From Candidatus Latescibacterota bacterium (GTDB lineage: Bacteria > Latescibacterota > UBA2968 > UBA8231): 64,000 nt of DNA. Shown here piece after piece: positions 46,001 to 63,929 of the stretch. A program made the position numbers and the translations under genes. The stretch lies in assembly GCA_965261395.1 (NCBI GenBank), contig OZ253462.1, positions 1,504,001 to 1,568,000 on the forward strand. The letters are read 5' to 3'. The stretch's first letter is position 1. Each line of letters begins with the position of its first letter. The notes beneath the pieces were generated by a model. It was not told where the DNA came from and did not search any database. It was given only the letters and a program-made list of their open reading frames with translations.

Positions 46001-48001
46001 TCATCCCCAGAAGATCACATTGCCGATCATTCCGGTGAAGTGATCGATGATGAGATAGAAGCCTCCCGGTGAGATGTGTCCCAGGATCATGCCAAAGAAA
46101 AAGGGACGGGTTTTCATGTAGAGTCCCACCCCCCCATACTTGAGTACCAGCACCTTGATTAGCCAGGCCAAAAACATGTTGAACCACAGGGCGGTCATGA
46201 TCCATATCGGACCGATCGGATACCCCAGGGGATGGAGCGGCCACCACACATAGCGCCAGCGGGCGATCATCAAGCCCGACATGATCACGGCCCCGATCCC
46301 AGTGTTGATCCAGCCCCACAGGTGCGGCGCTTTCGGCGAGTGAATCAAATTCCCCATGTAGTCGTAGGCGTCCCTCTGCGACCATATCTTCAGATTGAGA
46401 GCCCCGTACTCGTGGCTGAGGATCATGATCACCCAGACCGACCCGGCCAAGGCCACCACCACACCTAGGACCAAAGCCCAGAACAGCGGCCGTTTGTCGC
46501 TTTCCAACTCCTCCCCCAACCTGAGGCCGTTAGCGCACGAAGTCATCACAAAACTGCGCACTCCGGCCGTCCAGAAATAGGTTGTCGCCAAAATGACCAA
46601 GCCCTGCGACCCCACCGCCGACGAGCCCACCGCCGACACTAAGATGCCGGCTGGCACTACCGGCGGCGCGCCATCCGACAGCCCGCCCTCGGCCACCACC
46701 CGGGTGTAGCCGTAGATAATCACTGCCGCTAAGCAGAGCAAGCTCAGCGCCACCCACAAAGGCATGCCCGCCAGCCACAACCATCCCACCAGTACTAGGT
46801 TGCCGGTAATCAGGACAATCACCGCCGTCCGATAGGAGAGGACCTCTCCGGAATCATCCACCGTCGGATCCCCAGTAAAGGCCTTGCGGAAAACCTCCTT
46901 CAGATGCTTGCGTGCCGTCCACAGGCCGCCTAAAAACAGCACCAGCATCGCCCCCATCGACTGGTGTGCCAGAATCGGATCCTGTACCGCGTGACCGCCT
47001 CCGAGGGTCTCCGAGCTAGTGATACCAAAGACTCCGAAAATTCCCCGCACTATGTTGAACAACAGGTTGAAAAACCACAGGCTGAAGGCGACCTCCGTCT
47101 TGAGGAAGTAGAAAAATCCCAGGATATTGGGCCGCAACTTGATGTGCAACTCCGAAGTGTCGCGAAAGATGGGCACGATCAAACGGACCATGTCTATGTC
47201 CTCGGCGATGAGGAACACATCCGGGAAGTAGTTGTAGAGCCCGTGCAGCGTACCCCAGAGAAACGGTACTGCAAAGCCGGCCCACATCACCGGATTCTTA
47301 AAGAAAGGGGGGATGCGCTCGCTCTCCCCGCCTTGCTCGGTCATGGCCAGGGGCACCTGTACCAAGGGATAGACCAACCGTTCGTTCTCGACCCACTGCT
47401 TGCGCAGCACGACCATGCTGGCAATCATCACCAAAAACAGCGCCCAGACGAAAGGGGTCCAAGCCAAAAACGTCGGCACCCAAGCTTCCCAGGGAATCGG
47501 CTGCCCTTGCTCTACCCCTTCGTAGAACGGGTTCAGGACCTTGGCGTCGTGCGGCATCAACCAGTGGGGTATGTATGACTGGATCAGGTTGCGCCAATCG
47601 TTCTCGGGGGTGGCGTAGTAGAAGGGCGCGGTGATCTGGGAGAGGAAGCGGGCGCAGAAGAGGGTGGGAATCGGGGAGGCCATGACCATCATGATGTAGA
47701 TCACCAGCAGTTCCTGCTGGTTCAGGCCCGCCCGCGGATGGACCAGTCTGAGCAAGGGATTCACCAAGCCGGTGAGGAGAGCCAGAAGGAACACTGCGCC
47801 CACCGTGCTGGTCCCCAAGGCCATGAACGACCCCTGCAGGTAGAGGGTCCCATATGTAGACCCAGCTGAGACGAAGAAGGCGAAGACGCAGCCCAGCAGG
47901 AACGCCCTGAGCGTGAACGCCGAGGTCTCTAAAGGGGGGGGAACTTCAGTGCCACGGCTCCCAGACATCCCTTTCGTGGAACGAAAGCCCAGCGACATCA
48001 C
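46001..48001 (-). CDS. DUF6785/DUF6784-like polytopic membrane protein (putative transporter)
   Basis: Many TM helices; LRKQWVENERLVYPL and WWPLHPLGY motifs. Confidence 0.75.
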   Translation of the reverse strand: MMSLGFRSTKGMSGSRGTEVPPPLETSAFTLRAFLLGCVFAFFVSAGSTYGTLYLQGSFMALGTSTVGAVFLLALLTGLVNPLLRLVHPRAGLNQQELLVIYIMMVMASPIPTLFCARFLSQITAPFYYATPENDWRNLIQSYIPHWLMPHDAKVLNPFYEGVEQGQPIPWEAWVPTFLAWTPFVWALFLVMIASMVVLRKQWVENERLVYPLVQVPLAMTEQGGESERIPPFFKNPVMWAGFAVPFLWGTLHGLYNYFPDVFLIAEDIDMVRLIVPIFRDTSELHIKLRPNILGFFYFLKTEVAFSLWFFNLLFNIVRGIFGVFGITSSETLGGGHAVQDPILAHQSMGAMLVLFLGGLWTARKHLKEVFRKAFTGDPTVDDSGEVLSYRTAVIVLITGNLVLVGWLWLAGMPLWVALSLLCLAAVIIYGYTRVVAEGGLSDGAPPVVPAGILVSAVGSSAVGSQGLVILATTYFWTAGVRSFVMTSCANGLRLGEELESDKRPLFWALVLGVVVALAGSVWVIMILSHEYGALNLKIWSQRDAYDYMGNLIHSPKAPHLWGWINTGIGAVIMSGLMIARWRYVWWPLHPLGYPIGPIWIMTALWFNMFLAWLIKVLVLKYGGVGLYMKTRPFFFGMILGHISPGGFYLIIDHFTGMIGNVIFWG

Positions 48002-48036
48002 CCTCTCACGGTTCCTCTGTTATCCGACCGCCAGAT

Positions 48037-49608
48037 TCATCGACGGCGACGGGAAGCTCTGCGCTGCTGCGGGCAGTCACTGAAGTCCCGGCGCGGGTCC
48101 TGGCTGACCACATCTGGATAATAGAGCGGTTGGTCTGCTTCTACTAGCATCCCGTCTCCACGCATGATCTGGTTAGACGTTCGGGGCTTTATCCGGCTCG
48201 GATACTGCTTGCGATATTGCGCGCTTTCCCGCCTAGTCGACTCGATGGCTTTCTCAAAGTCAAAGCCATCGAAGAGCGCGGACCTGAGTTTCTCCAGTTC
48301 GGCGGCCATCTCCCCTGTGGCGCGGCCTACCAGATTGCGCTGCTCGTCCGGATCGTCCATCAGGTCGAAGGCCAGATCCTCGCAGGCACGGAAGGCGATG
48401 TACTTGTAGCGCTGCGAGCGGATCATGCGGTATCCTTTGCCCAAGTGCCCGACGATGACGCCGGGGCGCGCTGCCAGAGCCGGGCAGGCATCGCCCCGCA
48501 CCGCCGGTGCCAGGTCGATACCGTCTAGATCGTCGAGCAGGGGCGCATCGGTCAGGCCACAGAGCGTGGGGAAGATATCGGCCAGGCTCACCGGCGCGGC
48601 GATTTCAGCCGGCGAGAGCTGACCCCTGCGATGCTCCGGCAGGGAGACGATCAGCGGCACCCGAACAGAAGCTTCGTGCCAAGTCTGTTTCCACCACAGG
48701 CCGTGCTCTCCAGCCAGTTCGCCGTGGTCCGAGGTGTAGACGATGACGGTATTGTCGAGCAGCCCGTCGCGCTCCAGGACCGCTAAAAAGTCCCCTATGA
48801 TCTCGTCCAACTGGTCTACGCAGGCAATGTATGCCGCCCGGGCGCGCAGGGTCTGCTCCGCAGTGATCTCTTCGGCGGGATGACCCTGAGACTCGCCGCC
48901 ATCCGACCTCAGAGCTTCCAAGGTCATGGGGTGGTCCTGGGCGTCCCCGCTGCGGCCCACCCGCGGTGGGGTGACCCCTTCGGGGTAGTAGCGCTCGAAA
49001 AAGCGGCGGGGTGCGTTCATCGGGAAGTGCGGGTGGACGAACGAGGTGTACATCAACCAAGGCTGGTCCGGGTGGGCGTGGCGGTGTTCGCGCAGCCAAG
49101 CCGTGGCCTCGCGCACGACAAACTGCTCCTGGAGCAGGGATTCGGGGATATCGCTGAGACCAGCATCCTCGATGATGGAGGGCATGAAGATGTGATCCTG
49201 GATCCCGGGCAGAAAAAGTGGGTCTTTCTGATGGCCTGGCGAGGGCGCGTCAAAGTCGCCGTAGGGGCGGGCCCCGAAGCCGGCGTACTGCCGGGAGCCC
49301 TGCAGGTGCATCTTGCCGACGGCGGCCGTGGCGTAGCCGTGCTGCCCCAGGTGCGAAGCAAAGGTAGGGGTTTCGGGCCACAGGACCGGGCAGCGGTGCG
49401 GGTGCCGGCCGGACAGCATCGACATTCGGCTGGGCGTACACAGGGGCATCTGGCAATAGGCGGTTTCGAAGTGGACGCCCTGCTGGATGAGGCGATCGAG
49501 CGTCGGAGTGCGGCAGGGTTCGCCGCCGCGCTCCGGAGAGCGAGCCGAGAGGAAGCGAAAACTGTGTTCATCGCTGAGGAGAAAGAGGATATTGGGGCGC
49601 TTGGGCAT
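48037..49608 (-). CDS. Sulfatase (choline-sulfatase-like)
   Basis: PNILFLLSDEH, CTPSRMSMLSG formylglycine motif, GKMH, SDHGE. Confidence 0.9.
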   Translation of the reverse strand: MPKRPNILFLLSDEHSFRFLSARSPERGGEPCRTPTLDRLIQQGVHFETAYCQMPLCTPSRMSMLSGRHPHRCPVLWPETPTFASHLGQHGYATAAVGKMHLQGSRQYAGFGARPYGDFDAPSPGHQKDPLFLPGIQDHIFMPSIIEDAGLSDIPESLLQEQFVVREATAWLREHRHAHPDQPWLMYTSFVHPHFPMNAPRRFFERYYPEGVTPPRVGRSGDAQDHPMTLEALRSDGGESQGHPAEEITAEQTLRARAAYIACVDQLDEIIGDFLAVLERDGLLDNTVIVYTSDHGELAGEHGLWWKQTWHEASVRVPLIVSLPEHRRGQLSPAEIAAPVSLADIFPTLCGLTDAPLLDDLDGIDLAPAVRGDACPALAARPGVIVGHLGKGYRMIRSQRYKYIAFRACEDLAFDLMDDPDEQRNLVGRATGEMAAELEKLRSALFDGFDFEKAIESTRRESAQYRKQYPSRIKPRTSNQIMRGDGMLVEADQPLYYPDVVSQDPRRDFSDCPQQRRASRRRR

Positions 49609-49859
49609 GGGTATAGCTCCTGTAGAAGTTAGATCATCGCTTGGGCAAAACTCCATTTTCTCAGGGTGTAATAGCGCAAAAAATATTTCGCACCGCCGAC
49701 ACCCATAAATGGATGCGCCGATTTATTCTTTCCGCTTTCCAGCGGTTGAATAAGAGAGTGTGCAAAGATTTCGGTAGCGGCCACTGGTAGTGCAGAGCCG
49801 CAACAGCTCAAACCTTACAGAGACTCCGAACCACCAATCTACAAGAGTTCACTCGGCGG

Positions 49860-51353
49860 CTATTCCGTCAATAGCTCGGGCGCGACGCCTGCTCCGGCAT
49901 TGGGGTCGGCGCCCTCTTTGGCCCGGTCCAAAAGCTCGGACAGTTCCCCGACCACCCCAGGGTATTCCCCATAGCGGTTGTGCCGCTCCGAAATGTCGTC
50001 TCTCAAGTTGAAAAGCTCTCCCGGAAAATCATGGTCTGCGTAGCCGCGTTCCTCTCTGTACCAATCCGGCTCCCGGGCGTCGCCGCCGCTGGGGGCATCA
50101 ATGAAGACCCAGTCGCCGCAGCGGATGGCGAACTTGCCGTTGAGGCTGTGATGCACGGCAAAGCGGCGGGTCGGTGGCGTGGCGTCCCCGTGTAACAGGA
50201 GAGGCAGCATACTGACGCTGTCTTCACCGGCATCCGACGGCAGCGGGACCCCTAGTATTTCTGCACAGGTCGCCATCAGATCGCTAAGGCTGAATAGCTG
50301 GCTGCACACTTTGCCAGTCGGCACCTTTCCCGGCCAGCGGGCGATGAAGGGGACGCGATGGCCGCCCTCCCAAGCATCGTACTTGATGCCGCGGAGATGG
50401 CCGTTACTAAAGTGGCGGTAATCGGGCATGATAGAGCTGTAGGCGAAGACTTCGGGGCCGTTATCGCTGGCGAAGATGAGTAGGGTGTCTTCGGCGATAC
50501 CTTTGCGATCGAGCGCCTCCACGACTTGGCCGACGCACCAGTCCACTTCGCAGACGAAGTCCCCGTACTCGCCGGCCTGACTCATGCCGCGAAACTGCTC
50601 GGTGGGCACGATGGGGGTGTGGGGGGCGGTCATGGGGAAGTAAAGAAAAAAGGGAGCTTCCCCCGACTCCTCAATGTAGCGCACCACGCGCCGGGTCAAC
50701 TCGGGTATCACCTCCTCTAGACTCCATCCGGGAGCCATGGCACCGGGACGACACGTGGATGGATACGGCAAGCCTTCTATGTCTTCCGGCTTTTCCTCCG
50801 TTGGCTGCACCTGCACGCGGTCCTGTTCGAGCCAAGTATAGGGTGGGAAATTGGGCAGGTCCTGTCCGAAGTAGTAGTCGAAGCCCCGGTCAACAGGCCC
50901 GCCTTTGATGGGCCGGGTGAAGTCGATGTTCTTGCCCAATTCGATCCGTGCTTGGTCGTAGACTCCCAGTTCCACCCCCTTGTTGGCCGGTCCTGCGTCC
51001 ATAGTGGGCCAGTCCCAGCCTAGGTGCCACTTTCCGATGCAGGCGGTTCGGTAGCCCTGTTCGCGGAGGAAGCCGGCCACCGTCGGCCGGTCCGGCTCGA
51101 TCAGCGCCGGGTCCCACTCCCAAAGTACCCCCTGTTTCAAGGGCGAGCGCCAGCAGTAGCGGCCGGTAAGCAGAGCGTAGCGGCTGGGAGTGCAGATACT
51201 GGAGGGGGCGTGGACGTCGGTAAAGCGCATGCCTTGGGTGGCCAGCCGGTCCAAGTTGGGGGTCGGTATTCTAGAATCGGGGTTGTTGCAGGCCATGTCT
51301 CCGTAGCCCATGTCGTCCGCAAAAATGTAGACGATGTTGGGGGGGGATTTCAC
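49860..51353 (-). CDS. Arylsulfatase
   Basis: GTG start; PNIVYIFADDMGYGD, CTPSRYALLTG, GKWHLG, SDNG, EGGHRVP. Confidence 0.9.
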   Translation of the reverse strand: MKSPPNIVYIFADDMGYGDMACNNPDSRIPTPNLDRLATQGMRFTDVHAPSSICTPSRYALLTGRYCWRSPLKQGVLWEWDPALIEPDRPTVAGFLREQGYRTACIGKWHLGWDWPTMDAGPANKGVELGVYDQARIELGKNIDFTRPIKGGPVDRGFDYYFGQDLPNFPPYTWLEQDRVQVQPTEEKPEDIEGLPYPSTCRPGAMAPGWSLEEVIPELTRRVVRYIEESGEAPFFLYFPMTAPHTPIVPTEQFRGMSQAGEYGDFVCEVDWCVGQVVEALDRKGIAEDTLLIFASDNGPEVFAYSSIMPDYRHFSNGHLRGIKYDAWEGGHRVPFIARWPGKVPTGKVCSQLFSLSDLMATCAEILGVPLPSDAGEDSVSMLPLLLHGDATPPTRRFAVHHSLNGKFAIRCGDWVFIDAPSGGDAREPDWYREERGYADHDFPGELFNLRDDISERHNRYGEYPGVVGELSELLDRAKEGADPNAGAGVAPELLTE

Positions 51354-51451
51354 GATGCGGCCTCGCCCTCGTCTGGGTCTTCGAGGTTGTGGAGGCAGTG
51401 CAACTCGATGCCATCGCATCCGTACTCGGCGAATGTGACAGTCAGTTTCAT
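51350..51451 (-). pseudogene. 33-codon collapsed gene, possibly a sugar-phosphate isomerase/epimerase remnant
   Basis: Strong RBS GAGGAGG; MKLTVTFAEYGCDGIELHC...; its stop overlaps the sulfatase start (GTGA). Confidence 0.4.
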
Positions 51452-51548
51452 GAATACCTCCTCTATCTCGCCTCTTGTAGTGTAGGCTCGATGATCGATG
51501 ATAATGTAAGAAAAATGCAGCCCGAGGCCACGTATGATCTTGATGCGA

Positions 51549-51579
51549 AAAAGTAAAGCCCCTGAGCAATCAGGGGCTT
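51549..51579 (-). terminator. Intrinsic terminator after tRNA-Val
   Basis: AAGCCCCTGA-TTGC-TCAGGGGCTT stem followed by TACTTTTT on the minus strand. Confidence 0.8.
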
Positions 51580-52810: not shown

Positions 52811-53383
52811 CTATTCGAGCTTGACCATCTTTCGGGTGCGCAACTGATCGCCCACGCGTAGCTGATACAAATAGGCTCCAGAAGCGACGGGTTGGCCCTT
52901 ATCATCTCGGCCATCCCAAGTCAGCCGGTGTTCGCCCGCCGCCAACGGACCCGACCACACTTGGCGCACAAGCTGTCCCAAGAGGTTGTAGATGGCTACG
53001 TCCACAGCCTCGGCACCGGCAGGCACCGATAGGGGGATGGTCGTGGCCGGATTAAACGGATTGGGATAGTTCGCACCCAAGACAAAGTCCGACGGCGTAG
53101 CCTGCTCAATGGCGACGGCTGTGGGCGGACTGCTCTGGTTGATAAAGACGAAAGCCCCACCAGGAACCCCTAAAGCCCCTAAAGGACCGCCTTCCTCATT
53201 CCGCCCCAGCACGACCAGATCGGCGGCCCCATCGCCGTTGAGGTCGCCGGTATCATCAAGGAACCCCAAGCCGATGCCCGGGCCAAGGGTGAAAAAGTCG
53301 GGTTCTACGAACAACGTGCCGGGCGAGGCAAAAGCCCCGTATGGAGCCGCCAGCAGCAAAATAGCTACGATAAAGCGGTGCAT
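52811..53383 (-). CDS. Short secreted protein: one FG-GAP repeat plus a FlgD-Ig/T9SS-like C-terminal domain
   Basis: Signal peptide MHRFIVAILL, GDLNGDGAADLVV, NYPNPFNPATTI...IYNLLGQLVR...WDGRD...SGAYLY. Confidence 0.8.
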   Translation of the reverse strand: MHRFIVAILLLAAPYGAFASPGTLFVEPDFFTLGPGIGLGFLDDTGDLNGDGAADLVVLGRNEEGGPLGALGVPGGAFVFINQSSPPTAVAIEQATPSDFVLGANYPNPFNPATTIPLSVPAGAEAVDVAIYNLLGQLVRQVWSGPLAAGEHRLTWDGRDDKGQPVASGAYLYQLRVGDQLRTRKMVKLE

Positions 53384-53401
53384 AGTTACCTCCCTAAGTC
53401 G

Positions 53402-53469
53402 AAGGGTGGGTTGGTGCAGAAGGGCACGTAGGGACGGCTTGCGAACCGCCCCTAAGCACGAGGCGCGAT
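53402..53469. repeat. 68-bp repeat copy 2, containing a REP palindrome
   Basis: AAGGGTGGGTTGGTGCAGAAGGGCACGTAGGGACGG...CCGCCCCTAAGCACGAGGCGCGAT. Confidence 0.85.
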
Positions 53470-54404
53470 TAATGAGTGCCCGTTGAAAGCAGCGATTTGA
53501 TCTGTCCCCACGACTGGGCTTCGACGCTCGTAGCAGCAGGGAGCGCCGGTCGCCAAGCGGGCGAGTGTCCACCTAAGCCGTTGGTCAGATTGAACAAGTG
53601 GCTCCCGTCTATATCAACGGCCCATACCTCCCTAAAGCCGTCGCTAGTGGTAAAAGAAGTGAAGGCTACCCTCGTGCTGTTGGGTGCCCAAGTGAAGTCT
53701 TCGTATGGGACCATTACGCTGATGTCGGGATGCCAGAAAGGTTGATCGGGGTTAGGCAGATCGGGCAGGGGAATGATCCGAAAGAACGAGGCCCCATGAA
53801 TGAACGAAGACTCATCTTCCCTGACATCGCGGATATAGAGGCGGGCGATATTCTCTTCGTCCCCTTTTTCCCGCAGCACGATGCCTGCTTCTTTGTTCCC
53901 ATCCGGGGAAAGACTGGTGCGTGGCACCTCTCTCCAGTCCACGGGCGAGGAGTCACTTCCGTCCAGCGCCATAACGAAATATACACCTGTATCAGGACCG
54001 TCCCACTCGTCTGGAATCGGCCCGGTCGGGACGGCGGTATAGTAAAGGCTACGCCCGTCTTCAGACCACCAAAGCCTCAATTTTTCGACTGAATCGTCTG
54101 TCACCTGTTGCGGATTACTGCCGTCGGCGTCCATCAACCAAATCTCCCCGCCATACGGCCAAGTCTCATCGTCGTCAACGTCAATATAGGCGATCTTCGT
54201 TCCATCCGGGGACCAAACCGGGCTAGCGCAATACCGTCCTTGGGTCAGGTTTACGGGGTCGCTCCCGTCCGCATTCATAATCCACACGTCATCGTACCCG
54301 TCGCGGTGGGAGATAAATGCTATTTTACCGTCGGCTTGTCCCCAGCCAGCGACGGCCAATCCCAGCGTTGCCAAGCAGGCGATCAGTAGAGACCGATAGT
54401 TCAT
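53469..54404 (-). CDS. Secreted TolB-like (PD40) beta-propeller, paralog B, SWGQIK tail
   Basis: Signal peptide, KIAFIS, WIMNADGS, WSPDGTKIAY. Confidence 0.85.
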   Translation of the reverse strand: MNYRSLLIACLATLGLAVAGWGQADGKIAFISHRDGYDDVWIMNADGSDPVNLTQGRYCASPVWSPDGTKIAYIDVDDDETWPYGGEIWLMDADGSNPQQVTDDSVEKLRLWWSEDGRSLYYTAVPTGPIPDEWDGPDTGVYFVMALDGSDSSPVDWREVPRTSLSPDGNKEAGIVLREKGDEENIARLYIRDVREDESSFIHGASFFRIIPLPDLPNPDQPFWHPDISVMVPYEDFTWAPNSTRVAFTSFTTSDGFREVWAVDIDGSHLFNLTNGLGGHSPAWRPALPAATSVEAQSWGQIKSLLSTGTH

Positions 54405-54449: not shown

Positions 54450-55316
54450 TCATGGGGCTGAAAGTAGCGATTTGATCCGTCCCCACGACTGGGCTTCGAC
54501 GCTCGTAGCAGCAGGAAGCGCCGGTCGCCAAGCGGGAGAGTGTCCACCTAAGCCGTTGGTCAATTCGACCCAGTTGTCCCCGTCTGTATCAGCCGCCCAA
54601 ATCTCAGACTGACCCATGAAATCGAGAAAACCAGAAAAGGCTATTCTCAGCCCGTCGGGCGACCAAGTAGGAAACGTTCGCCAATTTTCGTAGGGTTCGG
54701 TGTATATCAGTTTATTCTGGAGTGATTCAGGTAGGAGATAACCTGGGTGCATGTGATCACTGGCACTGGTGCGGATGTAGAAATTGACATGCTTATGGCC
54801 CCCTCCATCCCACAACGAGACGGTTGCTAGTAGGGTTCCGTCTGGAGAAACACCAGGGAGGAAGCGGCTATATACCTCTCTCCAGTCCACAGGCGACGCG
54901 CCACTGCCGTCCAGCGCCGTAACAAACGCATCAGGGCCGTCCCACTCGTCCGGAAGCGGCAAAGTCACGACGGCTACATAGTAAATGCCCCTCCCGTCTT
55001 CAGACCAAAAAAGCCGCGCTTTATCGACCGAACCGTCTGTCACCTGTTGCGGATTACTGCCATCGGCGTCCATCAACCAGATTTCGCCACTGGCAATATA
55101 GGCGATCTGCGTGCCATCTGGAGACCAAGCCGGGCTAGCGCAATCCCGTCCTTGGGTTAGGTTTATGGGATTGCTCCCATCCGCATTCATAATCCACACA
55201 TCACCGTACCCTGCGCGGTCGGAGATAAATGCGATTTTATCGCCGGCTTGCCCCCAGCCAGCGACAGCCAGTCCTAGCGTTGCCAAGCAGACGATCAGTA
55301 TGGATCGATAGTTCAT
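54450..55316 (-). CDS. Secreted TolB-like (PD40) beta-propeller, paralog A, SWGRIK tail
   Basis: Same N- and C-termini as paralog B; WSPDG repeats. Confidence 0.85.
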   Translation of the reverse strand: MNYRSILIVCLATLGLAVAGWGQAGDKIAFISDRAGYGDVWIMNADGSNPINLTQGRDCASPAWSPDGTQIAYIASGEIWLMDADGSNPQQVTDGSVDKARLFWSEDGRGIYYVAVVTLPLPDEWDGPDAFVTALDGSGASPVDWREVYSRFLPGVSPDGTLLATVSLWDGGGHKHVNFYIRTSASDHMHPGYLLPESLQNKLIYTEPYENWRTFPTWSPDGLRIAFSGFLDFMGQSEIWAADTDGDNWVELTNGLGGHSPAWRPALPAATSVEAQSWGRIKSLLSAP

Positions 55317-55472
55317 AACGCGGCTCCTTTCGCATGGCGGGATTGAGTAAGAAGAGTTCATAACACATCTCCTTTCAGATGGAGGGATTGGGTAAGAGTC
55401 TCTAACAAACCCTTTTTATGACGTTTAGGCTGATCTATATTCGATTCTTCGATGACGAATCAATTAGATATA

Positions 55473-55488
55473 AGCATACTTCGTGCCA
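55473..55488 (-). promoter_or_regulatory. Sigma54 (-24/-12) promoter
   Basis: TGGCAC-GAAGT-ATGCT on the minus strand, with correct GG-N10-GC spacing. Confidence 0.8.
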
Positions 55489-55504
55489 CACAGCAGACCC
55501 CGCA

Positions 55505-55538
55505 CAAAAAAATCCTTTGGGATATACCCTAAAGGATT
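55505..55538 (-). terminator. Probable intrinsic terminator of the activator gene
   Basis: AATCCTTTAGGG-TATAT-CCCAAAGGATT followed by a T run on the minus strand. Confidence 0.55.
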
Positions 55539-55622
55539 GGAAAACATAGCGGTTATATAGCGTGAAACTTCTTTTTATTAGGCGTGACGTCCGTCGTCGT
55601 TACAAGTTGATCTAAAAGATTC

Positions 55623-55677
55623 CGTATTTAATACGACTTTTTCCGTATTTAATACGATTCTCTTCGTATTTAATACG
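55623..55677. promoter_or_regulatory. Three phased palindromes, putative upstream activator sequences
   Basis: CGTATTTAATACG at 55623, 55644 and 55665 (exact 21-bp period). Confidence 0.75.
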
Positions 55678-55725
55678 ACTTTTCACCAACAGCGCAATGG
55701 TCCTAGTAGGTCGCGGCTTTCCCCT

Positions 55726-58700
55726 TTAAAGCCCTTTCTTCGGTCGTTGCAACCCGAACACGCGCATGCGGGAACGCAGTCGCTCCGGGTTCATGCCCAA
55801 CAAGTGCGCCGCGCCCCGCTCTCCATAGATCTTCCCCTCGGTAGCTTGGAGCGCCTCCACGATTTGCTGTTTCTCGTCTTTGAATTTGGCTGCAACCGGC
55901 GGCTCAAACGGCCTTTCTTTGGCCTCGTCTTCAGCAGCCAGCGGCACATCCTCCACCTGAATAACCTCCTCTTGGCATAGCACCACCGCCCGCCGGATCA
56001 AATGCTCCAACTCGCGCACATTCCCCGGCCACGCGTATGCCTGCAAATGCTTCACTACTCCGTCGCCCAAAGCGGGCACCGGTCGCTGCAGACTTTGGGC
56101 ATACCGACGCGCAAAATGCGCCGCCAAGACCGGGATGTCCTCCCGACGCTCCCGTAGCGGCGGCAGCTTCACTGGCCACACGCTCAAGCGGTAGAACAGA
56201 TCTTCCCGGAACGTTCCCGCCCGGATCTCCTGTTTCAGATCCTTGTTGGTCGCCGCAATCACCCGCACATCCACCGGGATGGACTGCTCGCCGCCGACGC
56301 GCGTCAGGTAGCGATTCTCCAGAATGCGGAGCAGTGCCTGTTGGACTTCTAACGACAGATCGCCGATTTCATCGAGGAACAAGGTGCCGTAGTTAGCTCG
56401 TTCAAAACAGCCGATATGCCGCTTCACGGCACCAGTAAAGGCCCCTCGCTCGTGGCCGAACAGCTCGCTCTCGATCAGCCCAGCGGGCAGGGAGCCGCAA
56501 TTGAGCGCGACAAAGGGCTGCCCTCGGCGCCGGCTCAGGTTGTGGATCCTCTGAGCCAGCACCCCCTTGCCCACCCCGGTCTCACCTAGCACCAGCATCG
56601 TCATATCGGTCTCGGCCATCTGTGCGACCTCCTCTAAGAGCTGGGTCATGACTTGGCTCTGGCTGAGAAAATCCTGATCCGAAGCCCGCAGCATGTGCAT
56701 GTGTTCTAGGCGCTGGAGGCGTGCGCTCTTCTCGTCGGGGAACACCTGCACATCGAGGCTGGCGACATCCGACATGAGGCCATCCCGATCTAAGGCCCGC
56801 ACCTCAAAGCAGAATTGGCCAACCGGTACGCGGTGGTACGACACTCTGTTGGAAGGGGTGAACGCACTCCACTCTTCCGCCGGGTCGTAGCCGACGAGCC
56901 GGTGACTATAGCGCATCTGCTCGGCCCCGCTCCTGAAGCTGAGGCCCTGGAAGTGGAACTGAATCTCGGGAGTGCTATCCGAGCAGGACACGGCTTGGGG
57001 CATCTCCAAGAGTCTTCCTGCCATGACTTGGCGGATCACGACACCTGGGGGTGTATCCCCAGGCTGGTATGCAATCAGCCCCGCCCTCGTCCCGAACCAC
57101 AACCGGCCCCGGCTATCGCGCAGGATGGCCTCGACAATATTCTCGAGGGTGGACTTGCCCAAACGGATGCTCTGAAACACTCGACCATCGTACTTCAGCA
57201 CGCCCCCACCGCTCGTCCCAATCCACAGACACTCCTGCTGGGGGTCAGCTACCAGAGCCAAGATGCTATTGACGGACAGATCGCCTTGGTCTGCCGTAAA
57301 CCGACGCACCTGCTGAGCGCGGTAGTCAAAGGCGAAAAGGCCGTTGGCCGTCCCGATCCAAAGCGTGCCCTCGTAGTCGCACAACGCGCTCACATAAGCG
57401 ACAGTTTCTATCCCGGCCATGTCAGACGCGTGGAAATGGCCGTCTTTGTAATAGTACAGAGCCGGCGTTGTCCCATAGCTACCGATCCACAAGGTGCCTT
57501 CGCGATCCTGCAACGCGACTCGGCAACAATCAGGTCCCTGCTTCTCGGCTATAAAGCGGTCGTCTTCTATCCTGCCCAAGCATCCCCCGGAAGTGCCGAC
57601 CCTTATGCACCCTTCCCGGTCTGGGTATAGATTGATTTCTTCGTAGCCGTTGTCTTTTGCCACCTCGATCACTTGGGCCTCTTTCCCCACCCCTTTAATT
57701 ACTTTGCCCTCGGGACTCCCGCGCCAGACTTGCCCCTCGCGATCTATCGCCAACGCCGTGACCTTGTGCCCGGTATCCACCGGGCGAATCCGGTCGTCTT
57801 CAAGACAGGCTAGCCCTCCCATCGTGCCGATCCAGACCCGGCCTTGGTGGTCTTCCCTTAGCTGTTGGACCTCGCGGTCAGGTAGGCCGTCGGCTTCGGT
57901 GTATAGCTGGACGCTGACCGGATCGCAAAAAACCAGCCCGCCGCCCCACAGTCCCACCCAGATATTTCCTTCGCGGTCCGCGTAGGTCAGCCGCGCATCC
58001 GAAAAGTGAATATCCGGCAAGCCGGCTGAAAAAGGATGCCATTCCTTCCCGTCGTACACTAGCACTCCCCGGCGAGTCATCCACAGCCAACCTCTATCGT
58101 CCAAGCGCACATGGCGCGTGCCGTGATTTACAGCCTCCGTCCCTTCGATAGCTGCGTCCGCATTGATCAGGTCGAGTTGTTGGCTGTCTGGATCATAGCG
58201 GCCGATAACGGCTTCGGTACCAACGTAGCGAAAAGCGATCCACAGAGGGCCGGAGGCGTCTTGGGCGAATTTCCACGGCCACTGCATTGCGCCGTTCTCC
58301 GCGCTCATGCGTCGACCGTCTAGGCTAATGACTCCCCACTTCAGCGTCGCCAGCCACGTCGTACCCGTCGCGTCGGTCGCCATATCGAACACCCGCCCTA
58401 GCGGCTGATCCACAATTTCTGTCACGCGCTCTACGCATCGCCCCTCGACAAACCAGCCTATCCCTGCGTCGGTCAGAACCCGTATCGAACCATCGGCTTG
58501 GGATTGCATGCCCAATATGTCGTTGGAGGGCAGCCCGTGCTCGGTGGTGTACACCTGAAAACCACGCCCGTCGTATGCAGCTAGCCCGCCTCCCAGCGTA
58601 CCGAAGAGCAGCCGCCCGTCCGCGTCCTCGGCAATGGTCATTACCGTGAGACTGGGTAGCCCGTCCGACAGGCCAAAGGTATCGAAATGTGCTCCGTCGA

Positions 58701-58875
58701 ACCGACTTACGCCGCCGTCGGCCGTGGCGATCCAGAGCAGGCCGAGCTGATCTTGATAGATGTCTTCCACCTGCATCCCAGCCAGCCCGTCGAAAACCGT
58801 GTACTGGTGCCCTATGATGCGATCAAAGGGGCTTCTCTGTCTTGGGGTTCTTGCGGGTCCGCTCGCGTCGTTCAC
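55726..58875 (-). CDS. Sigma54 enhancer-binding protein with an N-terminal Reg_prop beta-propeller/Y_Y_Y sensor
   Basis: Probable GTG at 58875; many DGL...D..G.LWIGT repeats, YSHRLVG..W..FEVRA; GETGVGK, ESELFGHERGAFTGA, LFLDEIG, FREDLFYRL, WPGNVREL, C-terminal HTH. Confidence 0.9.
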   Translation of the reverse strand: MNDASGPARTPRQRSPFDRIIGHQYTVFDGLAGMQVEDIYQDQLGLLWIATADGGVSRFDGAHFDTFGLSDGLPSLTVMTIAEDADGRLLFGTLGGGLAAYDGRGFQVYTTEHGLPSNDILGMQSQADGSIRVLTDAGIGWFVEGRCVERVTEIVDQPLGRVFDMATDATGTTWLATLKWGVISLDGRRMSAENGAMQWPWKFAQDASGPLWIAFRYVGTEAVIGRYDPDSQQLDLINADAAIEGTEAVNHGTRHVRLDDRGWLWMTRRGVLVYDGKEWHPFSAGLPDIHFSDARLTYADREGNIWVGLWGGGLVFCDPVSVQLYTEADGLPDREVQQLREDHQGRVWIGTMGGLACLEDDRIRPVDTGHKVTALAIDREGQVWRGSPEGKVIKGVGKEAQVIEVAKDNGYEEINLYPDREGCIRVGTSGGCLGRIEDDRFIAEKQGPDCCRVALQDREGTLWIGSYGTTPALYYYKDGHFHASDMAGIETVAYVSALCDYEGTLWIGTANGLFAFDYRAQQVRRFTADQGDLSVNSILALVADPQQECLWIGTSGGGVLKYDGRVFQSIRLGKSTLENIVEAILRDSRGRLWFGTRAGLIAYQPGDTPPGVVIRQVMAGRLLEMPQAVSCSDSTPEIQFHFQGLSFRSGAEQMRYSHRLVGYDPAEEWSAFTPSNRVSYHRVPVGQFCFEVRALDRDGLMSDVASLDVQVFPDEKSARLQRLEHMHMLRASDQDFLSQSQVMTQLLEEVAQMAETDMTMLVLGETGVGKGVLAQRIHNLSRRRGQPFVALNCGSLPAGLIESELFGHERGAFTGAVKRHIGCFERANYGTLFLDEIGDLSLEVQQALLRILENRYLTRVGGEQSIPVDVRVIAATNKDLKQEIRAGTFREDLFYRLSVWPVKLPPLRERREDIPVLAAHFARRYAQSLQRPVPALGDGVVKHLQAYAWPGNVRELEHLIRRAVVLCQEEVIQVEDVPLAAEDEAKERPFEPPVAAKFKDEKQQIVEALQATEGKIYGERGAAHLLGMNPERLRSRMRVFGLQRPKKGL

Positions 58876-59151
58876 CTCCGCCCTTTCTTTTCTAAAATTA
58901 TGATCGATTTGATCCATCCCCACGACTGGGCCTCGACGCTCGTAGCGGAAGGGGAGGCTGGTCGCCAAGCGGGCCATCTTCCGCCCGAGCCGTTGGTCAA
59001 ATTGACCAAGTTGCTCCCGTCTATATCAACTACCCAAATATCAAACGGGCCGACCCTACTGGGACCAGAAGCGAAGGCTATTCTCATGCCGTCCGGTGCC
59101 GGCCTGCCCCAGTGTTGCCAAGCAGACGATCAGTATGGACCGATAGTTCAT
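58872..59151 (-). pseudogene. Collapsed third TolB-like paralog
   Basis: MNYRSILIVCLATLG joined out of frame to PDGMRIAF...NLTNG...ATSVEAQSWGWIKS. Confidence 0.85.
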
Positions 59152-59203
59152 GATGTGGCTCCTTGCAAATGAGCGGATTGGGCAGGGCGTTAATAGTTGC
59201 TAG

Positions 59204-63288: not shown

Positions 63289-63594
63289 TTAGGCAGCCAC
63301 GGGATCGCTGACCTCAACTGCAAGGCGTAAGCCCAACTCGCGCAGAACTGCGGTCAAACTTAAGAGTTGGGGATTACCTTGGTCGGACAGCATTCGATAC
63401 ATCGACTCGCGATTGAGCTGAGCGCCCTCTGCGAGTCGCTTCATGCCGTGAGCTTCGGCTACATCGCGCAGCGCAAGGAGGAACACGTCAGGGGAGCCAT
63501 CCTCAAGAGCAGCAGTCAGATACGCAGCCGCTTCGCTAGGATCTCTGAGATCTTCTAGTAGCCCTTCTTTATACGGTCGAGATGCTTTGCTCAT
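63289..63594 (-). CDS. Addiction module antidote protein (HTH antitoxin)
   Basis: AAAYLTAALE...ALRDVAEAHGM...RESMYRMLS..GNP. Confidence 0.9.
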   Translation of the reverse strand: MSKASRPYKEGLLEDLRDPSEAAAYLTAALEDGSPDVFLLALRDVAEAHGMKRLAEGAQLNRESMYRMLSDQGNPQLLSLTAVLRELGLRLAVEVSDPVAA

Positions 63595-63929
63595 AATGAC
63601 CTTCTTCTGTAGTCGCGCCAGAAAATCCGAGCCTGTTCAATGTCCCGTGATTGGGTTCTTTTACTGCCGCCGCAAAGCAACAACACAAGGCGGTCACCTG
63701 CCCGCCCGAAATAGACCCGATAACCGGGACCGTGGTCAATGCGTAGCTCGTGGAGGCCACCACCGAGCGAGTTGGTGTCGCCGAAGTTACCCAATCGCAA
63801 CCGCGCCAGTCGAGTGCGAATACGGGCCCTAGCAGTACGATCCCTCAAGTTGCGAATCCATTCCGAGAAGGGTGGCCGGCCTTCCTCTGTCTGATATACC
63901 TCGACCTCGTGTGATACCGCCTCTGACAT
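63591..63929 (-). CDS. Addiction module killer protein (RelE/ParE superfamily toxin)
   Basis: GNFGD, ELRIDHGPGYRVYF, LLLCGGSK..Q.RDI; toxin precedes antitoxin. Confidence 0.9.
   Translation of the reverse strand: MSEAVSHEVEVYQTEEGRPPFSEWIRNLRDRTARARIRTRLARLRLGNFGDTNSLGGGLHELRIDHGPGYRVYFGRAGDRLVLLLCGGSKRTQSRDIEQARIFWRDYRRRSL

Follow-up and report, generated by a model that had tools for sequence, protein, structure and literature searches.

A predicted cytoplasmic double-propeller sensor fused to a sigma-54 activator in a self-contained regulatory cassette of Latescibacterota

Enhancer-binding proteins serve in textbooks as the example of modular signal input. Gut Bacteroidota detect glycans chiefly through a combination of beta-propellers with a Y_Y_Y domain. 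To our knowledge, this propeller and Y_Y_Y module has been studied until now only as a periplasmic domain that signals across the membrane. In the hybrid two-component systems (HTCS) of Bacteroides thetaiotaomicron, an exported sensor is followed by a transmembrane helix and then by HisKA, HATPase, receiver and AraC domains. One of these sensors, BT4663, binds a fragment of heparin or heparan sulphate according to its PDB title, and its signal is reported to be carried by a scissor-like movement of the sensor (review PMC8534201, citing Lowe et al. 2012). Here we analyse a 64,000-nucleotide stretch of contig OZ253462.1 from a Candidatus Latescibacterota bacterium (assembly GCA_965261395.1, positions 1,504,001 to 1,568,000), hereafter the window, in which one gene joins a sensor of this kind to a bacterial enhancer-binding protein (bEBP). 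We consider it likely that the product is a one-component, enhancer-dependent sigma-54 activator with a cytoplasmic double-propeller and Y_Y_Y input, and that it is part of a self-contained switch.

The longest open reading frame at this locus, 55726-58977 on the minus strand, is a single open frame of 1083 codons. Because the GTG at 58875 (VNDASGPART...) aligns with the MNDAS... N-termini of close homologs, the best gene model is 55726..58875 on the minus strand, which encodes 1049 amino acids. Residue numbers of features refer to this 1049-residue protein, while Pfam coordinates are given in the numbering of the 1083-residue frame. The gene and its parts are as follows.

55726..58875, minus strand: whole gene, propeller-sensor sigma-54 activator of 1049 amino acids with a GTG start (open reading frame, homolog N-termini, Pfam, AlphaFold2).
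57046..58818, minus strand: two tandem Reg_prop beta-propellers, residues ~20-610 (Pfam, Foldseek, phmmer; all-beta in the AlphaFold2 model, with a predicted local distance difference test score, pLDDT, of mostly 85-96).
56740..57045, minus strand: Y_Y_Y immunoglobulin (Ig)-like domain, residues ~611-712 (Pfam; beta-sandwich strands 611-712 in the model).
56665..56739, minus strand: hydrophilic linker, residues 713-737 (PDEKSARLQRLEHMHMLRASDQDF...), with a predicted helix at 715-730 (hydropathy, AlphaFold2, paralog divergence).
55915..56664, minus strand: sigma-54 AAA+ domain with lid, carrying Walker A, Walker B and GAFTGA (Pfam, Foldseek).
55759..55890, minus strand: putative C-terminal Fis-type helix-turn-helix (HTH; sub-threshold HTH_8, model helices 996-1039, co-variation with the enhancer).

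The Pfam scan of the activator found Reg_prop (E 2.6e-34), Y_Y_Y at 684-745 (29.0 bits against a cut-off of 26.6), Sigma54_activat at 772-936 (E 8.2e-68) and AAA_lid_14 at 942-1021 (E 4.1e-26). The translation contains the AAA+ motifs GETGVGKG (Walker A), LFLDEIG (Walker B) and ERGAFTGAV. No HisKA, HATPase_c, Response_reg or AraC-type HTH was found in it at E up to 0.1, and GerE was likewise not found by Pfam. NifA, NorR, NtrC and other NCBIfam activator models matched the AAA+ part only, all below their cut-offs. An AlphaFold2 model built on a 42-sequence alignment (mean pLDDT 84.1, predicted template-modelling score 0.65) runs from an all-beta region (21-712) through a helix (715-730) to an AAA+ fold and C-terminal helices (996-1039), with low confidence in the linker at 720-734. 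The top Foldseek matches are the periplasmic domains of BT4663 (4A2L/4A2M, E 1e-42), BT3049 (3V9F, E 8e-41) and BT4673 (3OTT/3VA6); matches of the sensor to these three range from E 1e-42 to 3.5e-35 over ~775 aligned columns, with template-modelling scores of 0.60-0.66 on the target. The C-terminal half reaches at least 0.9 by the same score to FlrC, FleQ, ZraR and NtrC1. When the sensor alone was compared with the PDB by phmmer, matches were limited to hybrid two-component sensors of the BT4663/BT3049/BT4673 type (E 2e-40 to 1e-30), so that structure and sequence both agree with the HTCS-type homology that an initial annotation of this DNA had proposed.

Topology was assessed by Kyte-Doolittle hydropathy over 19 residues alone, for which the usual transmembrane threshold is 1.6. 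The peak 19-residue mean in the whole activator is 1.13. Neither candidate start has a hydrophobic N-terminus by this measure, the stretch of ~25-26 residues from Y_Y_Y to the AAA+ domain is hydrophilic, and just ~20 residues precede the first propeller strand in the AlphaFold2 model. The initial annotation had described a propeller and Y_Y_Y sensor fused to a bEBP with no membrane segment, no signal peptide, and a hydrophilic linker leading straight into the AAA+ domain; Pfam architecture and hydropathy bear this out, with no hydrophobic window between Y_Y_Y and AAA+ and nothing resembling a transmembrane helix or signal peptide. Because the module is joined without a membrane segment to a DNA-binding ATPase, we infer that the sensor must be cytoplasmic, which is where its ~700-residue propeller module had been placed. 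The Reg_prop/Y_Y_Y double propeller, so far studied only beyond the membrane, is thus predicted to work inside the cell here.

The same architecture is widely shared. A word-seeded search returned 6567 proteins at E <=0.001 among 8000 scored candidates, and we inspected the best 120. All 120 (62-97% identity, 781-1081 amino acids) carry Reg_prop and Sigma54_activat, and none carries HisKA, HATPase_c or Response_reg. In the ESM Atlas, the closest cluster (score 0.96, 70 members) combines these two families as well and bears the same phylum label. The proposed absence of a kinase or receiver thus extends from the activator to its best homologs, and the suspicion that relatives might carry a transmembrane or kinase block at this position, with the gene as a deletion product, was not upheld among them. 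A 19-residue window of at least 1.6 occurs in one of the 120 (value 1.62), where it lies within a propeller blade. The loop that contacts sigma-54 reads GAFTGA in 75, GAFTSA in 39 and another variant in three, and was not found by pattern in the remaining three; GAFTSA marks one paralog group, which includes a copy in the same genome (L001, 8615-11761, minus strand). Against seven full-length orthologs, the ratio of nonsynonymous to synonymous divergence (dN/dS) is 0.13-0.19 for the sensor and 0.10-0.19 for the AAA+ domain. Ortholog identities of 87-93% together with differing flanks show that these are not assembly copies of one sequence. By these ratios the sensor is kept under purifying selection as strict as that on the AAA+ motor. 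The family with this architecture is conserved, and it belongs to an uncultured bacterial lineage that is associated with sponges.

Searching exhaustively with the sensor alone, we obtained 90468 proteins at E <=0.001. The nearest representatives are activators of the same build without a transmembrane segment (P0122, P0123, P0125, P0128), and further, more distant ones exist (P0161, P0165, P0180). Most other matches are histidine kinases, hybrid kinases and SpoIIE phosphatases with a transmembrane helix after Y_Y_Y. Four kinases (P0132, P0148, P0182, P0219) also lack such a helix, with hydropathy of at most 0.4 between Y_Y_Y and HisKA, and one of them, P0148, shares the linker pattern 'V-x-P-D...R-I-x-x-L' with the activator. 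In a quick tree of the last blades and Y_Y_Y (86 rows, many branches weak), the window family forms a clade of eight rows with a Shimodaira-Hasegawa-like approximate likelihood ratio (SH-aLRT) support of 100. All eight stay below 1.5 in hydropathy behind Y_Y_Y, two of them borderline at 1.2-1.5. A second clade without transmembrane segments (support 98) mixes the activators P0165 and P0180 with kinases. Cytoplasmic Reg_prop/Y_Y_Y versions thus appear to be a wider, unstudied class with exchangeable outputs. The initial annotation had taken these modules as periplasmic sensors joined through a transmembrane helix to kinases. This is true of the studied members; since kinases with the same 'V-x-P-D...R-(I/L)-x-x-L-E' linker and no transmembrane segment exist, the periplasmic picture seems to reflect which members have been studied rather than the whole family.

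For the distribution of the fusion we compared 301 residues (last blades, Y_Y_Y, linker and start of the ATPase) with 151 genomes of the phylum. All 151 have a match at E 1e-20, for which the ATPase part alone suffices. Coverage of the sensor-ATPase junction was judged on the best 150 matches (E up to 2.8e-64), all but three of which span it, and the resulting genome counts are lower bounds: for the same genus at least 20 of 21 genomes, for the same family at least 14 of 42, for the same class at least 19 of 51 and for other classes at least one of 36. In some genomes the copies number ten or more. The homologs are labelled as Latescibacterota or, in older records, as Gemmatimonadota metagenome-assembled genomes. 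Contigs from four RNA-library runs (three studies) cover parts of the activator gene. Some differ from it at 1-3 positions in 170-270 nt; most pieces are 90-95% alike and so come from relatives. This is a weak hint that the gene is expressed, as DNA can be present in RNA libraries and the contigs show no transcript ends; a gap between contigs over the hairpin and promoter described below carries no weight.

The literature that we searched, which takes in few subscription journals and no domain-architecture databases, yielded no description of a propeller-sensor enhancer-binding protein. Leptospira proteins that surfaced for sigma-54 with beta-propeller were set aside as unrelated. Such architectures stand in Pfam/InterPro as unnamed 'sigma-54 interacting regulators'.

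The second part of the putative switch lies directly behind the stop codon of the activator. Three palindromes come first, then a conserved box, a hairpin with a run of T behind it, a -24/-12 promoter and, last, the genes that encode exported proteins. The elements of this cassette are:

55620..55682, minus strand: enhancer (upstream activating sequence), three 21-nt units at exact 21-nt spacing, each with palindrome CGTATTTAATACG (repeat families D1, I1/I2).
55598..55613, minus strand: conserved box AGATCAACTTGTAACG just behind the enhancer, recurring as AGATCA(A/G)YTTGYRACG in most cassettes of two paralog types.
55504..55538, minus strand: hairpin AATCCTTTAGGG-loop-CCCAAAGGATT followed by T7, probable intrinsic terminator (inverted repeat I3, conservation).
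55474..55488, minus strand: candidate sigma-54 promoter TGGCACGAAGTATGC, -24 GG / -12 GC (pattern match with 1 mismatch).

Twenty-five related loci extend far enough downstream to be judged; 18 of them have the cassette, and together with those of four paralogs in the same genome this gives 22 cassettes for comparison. Three copies of GTCGTATTWAATACG are kept in 9/10 loci of the window type (L008 has one copy). The hairpin is found in 22/22 cassettes with an almost invariant stem and 18 different loops of 4-6 nt; stem changes comprise one compensatory C-G to T-A exchange (L017/L018), two G-U pairs and two copies with an A-C mismatch. Because the loop varies in length, the element is better explained as a hairpin than as a rigid protein site. 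Its motif has only four occurrences in the 6.55-Mb genome, all of them behind paralogs. Its RNA fold has an energy of -18.1 kcal/mol, and it is a probable intrinsic terminator of the activator gene. A simple terminator scan did not flag it, probably owing to a bulged A, and an Rfam scan of 55300-55800 gave only a chance-level match to RUF4 (E 0.75). The distance from the hairpin stem to the -24 element is 23-25 nt in all 22 cassettes and 24 nt in the window. The case for promoter and terminator is made by this conservation across loci, not by the statistics of a single match. The genome has one rpoN gene. The box AGATCAACTTGTAACG, a possible bend site for integration host factor (IHF) or HU, is two mismatches from the IHF consensus, and we do not claim it as an IHF site; three genes of the HU/IHF family are present in the genome.

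The genome contains 23 frames with a sigma-54-type ATPase, seven of which also match the sensor. Four intact close paralogs are each followed by the same order of cassette parts. The paralogs carry a different palindrome at the same position, and the recognition helix of the HTH differs with it: RSRMRVFG is paired with CGTAT..ATACG, RYRMRKHG with CGTTCA..TGAACG and RYRMQKYG with CGTGGA..TCCACG. Palindrome type follows the recognition helix. As each copy has its own palindrome and a matching HTH, the copies of the switch would be insulated from each other at the DNA end.

Other relatives in the genome depart from this build. L036 1-2538 (plus strand; C1:5897071-5899608) encodes Reg_prop and Y_Y_Y, ~25 residues and then HTH_8, with no AAA+ domain and no cassette downstream. 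Decay of a former copy could explain it, or it might compete naturally for the enhancer sites. A rearranged paralog locus, L004 5999-10563 (minus strand), has a frame with a 618-residue sensor, AAA_lid and HTH lacking the ATPase core, and further frames for a 439-residue protein with weak Reg_prop and then a 368-residue sigma-54 activator without a sensor. L005 8187-11462 (minus strand) and L006 3429-6704 (plus strand) are distant propeller/Y_Y_Y/Sigma54_activat/HTH_8 paralogs with frames of 1091 amino acids. In place of the GAFTGA loop they carry LFGYWENDHKSI and LFGHASAVSHKV, and these proteins may not act on sigma-54.

If the proposed reading is correct, dimers of the activator would bind the three palindromes through the C-terminal HTH and so supply the six subunits of an AAA+ ring. 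NorR has three enhancer sites, and by analogy three sites would fit three dimers forming a hexamer. A signal, which might be a small molecule, an oligosaccharide or a protein, would be bound by the propellers and relayed through Y_Y_Y and the short linker helix. It would release or promote assembly of the ring, as the N-terminal domains do in NtrC1, DctD, XylR and NorR. By DNA looping, the ring would then reach sigma-54 RNA polymerase ~165 bp downstream and open the promoter. The hairpin most likely ends the activator transcript and would keep read-through from the target genes.

Several observations weigh against this reading or limit it. Hydropathy is a crude test for transmembrane segments. 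HTH_8 at 1035-1072 scores 13.7 bits in the window copy, under the 22-bit cut-off, which its homologs and paralogs pass. The fold energy of the hairpin is unexceptional (z -1.79; 12 of 200 shuffles fold as well), and the lone promoter match is not significant, with 10 such matches found in the window against 5.2 expected. The layout is not universal: in 7 of the 25 related loci (identity 57-64%) a convergent gene takes the place of the cassette. For the sensor, the analysis found no ligand, partner or binding pocket, and control could be negative or positive. Residues conserved within each of three homolog groups but different between them number 0-8 per 50 in the sensor and 8-13 per 50 in the linker and AAA+ domain. 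This and the conservation of propeller 1 among paralogs are no less compatible with a shared input or a structural role than with paralog-specific ligands.

The last two points lead to the strongest alternative, in which the propellers are a constitutive scaffold or oligomerisation domain and regulation occurs elsewhere, for instance through an anti-activator or the amount of activator. Between the paralogs of this genome, propeller 1 is 66-79% identical, nearly as conserved as the AAA+ core (64-81%), while propeller 2 reaches 54-73% and the linker, the most divergent segment, 30-63%. Gene conversion does not explain the conservation of propeller 1, because its synonymous divergence between paralogs (dS) is 0.4-1.4. 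Beta-propellers commonly mediate protein contacts, and the scarcity of group-specific residues in the sensor points the same way. Nevertheless, we think a mere scaffold unlikely. The 700-residue module is homologous to proven ligand sensors and under selection as strong as that on the ATPase; it occurs with interchangeable outputs (bEBP, histidine kinase, SpoIIE phosphatase), as is typical of input domains; and no conserved neighbouring candidate for an anti-activator was seen at orthologous loci. The comparison of paralogs fits a shared function of propeller 1, such as recognition of a common ligand moiety, contact with a common partner or dimerisation, and any specificity would then reside in propeller 2.

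Far less probable is that the gene is a recent deletion product, or the decaying remnant of a membrane-bound sensor kinase or anchored activator, with a sensor that no longer works. Relatives with a membrane segment do exist: in the metagenomic proteins P0247 and P0250, a transmembrane helix is inserted exactly at the position of the activator's linker. These have an N-terminal hydrophobic segment, propellers, Y_Y_Y, one transmembrane helix and a sigma-54-type ATPase, in this order; nine residues are inserted in the ATPase, DAFPGA or GAFAGA replaces GAFTGA, and no HTH follows. The genome also holds the truncated L004, without the AAA+ core, and L036, without the AAA+ domain. Against this stand the intact frame of the activator, the well-supported eight-row clade free of transmembrane segments, and the spread of the same build through dozens of genomes across a class-level clade. 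Because architecture and length are common to the 120 best homologs and dN/dS of the sensor is low, the gene is not a deletion remnant. Equally hard to credit is export or membrane association of the sensor by a route invisible to hydropathy, for perception of an extracytoplasmic glycan as in HTCS: the characterised relatives are all periplasmic (PDB titles; for BguR, bioRxiv 10.64898/2026.01.10.698779) and the target genes encode exported proteins, yet the hydropathy maximum and the short N-terminus leave no crossing segment in a chain whose ATP hydrolysis, DNA binding and contact with RNA polymerase must all take place in the cytoplasm.

Returning to the cytoplasmic activator, one may speculate much further, and we hold the following extension to be improbable. 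The double propeller without a transmembrane segment would be a new class of cytoplasmic receptor, for an imported glycan fragment, another host-derived molecule or the re-imported product of the exported Cys-rich peptides driven by one paralog. Symbiotic Latescibacterota would have multiplied it into plug-in sigma-54 switches with private enhancers, which jointly decide which adhesin-like or redox surface proteins are displayed. It would also be a general, overlooked input domain that feeds histidine kinases in other lineages.

The genes behind the promoter in the window, predicted as its targets, are:

54450..55361, minus strand: first target, exported PD40 (TolB-like) propeller protein, likely start MNYRSIL at 55315 (PD40 3.5e-15, N-terminal hydrophobic leader).
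53469..54404, minus strand: second PD40 paralog (PD40 4e-9).
52811..53572, minus strand: small FG-GAP protein with a FlgD_ig/Por_Secre_tail-like C-terminal domain, likely start MHRFIV at ~53386 (FlgD_ig 6.7e-14, Por_Secre_tail 1.6e-4).

Synteny with the activator is limited to such downstream genes for exported proteins, and no upstream neighbour recurs in relatives. The PD40 gene lies directly behind the cassette in the orthologous loci L012, L014 and L015, the gene for the FG-GAP protein is first behind the promoter in L009, and in L007 and L010 tblastn places matches to the latter downstream of the activator. In the same genome, the L001 paralog is predicted to drive four tandem redoxin-family proteins, and the L002 paralog a 702-residue redoxin protein and an FG-GAP/FlgD_ig protein. 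The L003 paralog would drive two 93-residue Cys-rich exported peptides, followed by FG-GAP/FlgD_ig proteins; the tandem peptide genes (L003 7353-7634 and 7780-8061, minus strand) have a hydrophobic leader and come first behind the sigma-54 promoter. From their sequences, the target proteins of the paralogs all look exported. As hints to the ligand we considered the upstream neighbours, an MR_MLE enolase-superfamily gene, DUF1028, PhyH and the sulfatases, and rejected them, as they are not conserved next to orthologs.

A remnant of a PD40 gene (58978-59152, minus strand) abuts the start of the activator and is the source of the 34-codon upstream extension of its open reading frame. It consists of a signal-peptide start (MNYRSIL...), a frameshift, the last PD40 blade and a tail (SVEAQSWG...) that is also present in both intact downstream PD40 genes. 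Elsewhere in the window, 46001-51569 (minus strand) encodes a DUF6785/DUF6784 protein (666 amino acids, 9.7e-132) and then two sulfatases, which are not syntenic with the activator in relatives. Two small overlapping genes at 63289-63929 (minus strand), for an HI1420-type antidote (dnstrm_HI1420, 6.6e-17) and a Gp49/HigB-like protein, are likely a toxin-antitoxin pair.

A conserved soluble version of the module wired to an AAA+ motor would show that it can signal without a membrane, and would offer a simpler system in which to follow how its movement is transmitted. The compact cassettes with distinct enhancer and HTH pairs suggest a natural set of probably non-interfering switches. For the exported PD40, FG-GAP and redoxin proteins of this uncultured, sponge-associated phylum, the cassette is also the sole handle on regulation to have been found as yet.

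With BT4663, BT3049 and BT4673 the activator shares the two tandem Reg_prop propellers and Y_Y_Y at ~20% sequence identity, yet it has none of the exported sensor, transmembrane helix, HisKA, HATPase, receiver and AraC parts of an HTCS, and it acts instead through an AAA+ sigma-54 activator. The closest printed analogue is BguR of marine Bacteroidota (bioRxiv 10.64898/2026.01.10.698779), in which a tandem propeller and Y_Y_Y are likewise joined directly to a DNA-binding output with no phosphorelay. According to that preprint, BguR acts from the membrane, with a signal peptide, a sensor in the periplasm, a single transmembrane helix and a GerE HTH, whereas the activator has no transmembrane segment and an ATP-driven sigma-54 output. 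At that output end the mechanism is classical: the AAA+ domain with GAFTGA, the putative C-terminal Fis-type HTH, the tandem upstream palindromes and the -24/-12 promoter are all shared with one-component bEBPs such as XylR/DmpR (V4R input), NorR/NifA/FhlA (GAF) and NtrC1/DctD (structural models). What sets the activator apart from known bEBPs is an input of ~700 residues, a double propeller with an Ig domain, where theirs are GAF, PAS, V4R, ACT or receiver domains; an enhancer that follows its own stop codon directly and is separated from the promoter by a terminator-like hairpin; and duplication of the whole cassette with private binding sites.

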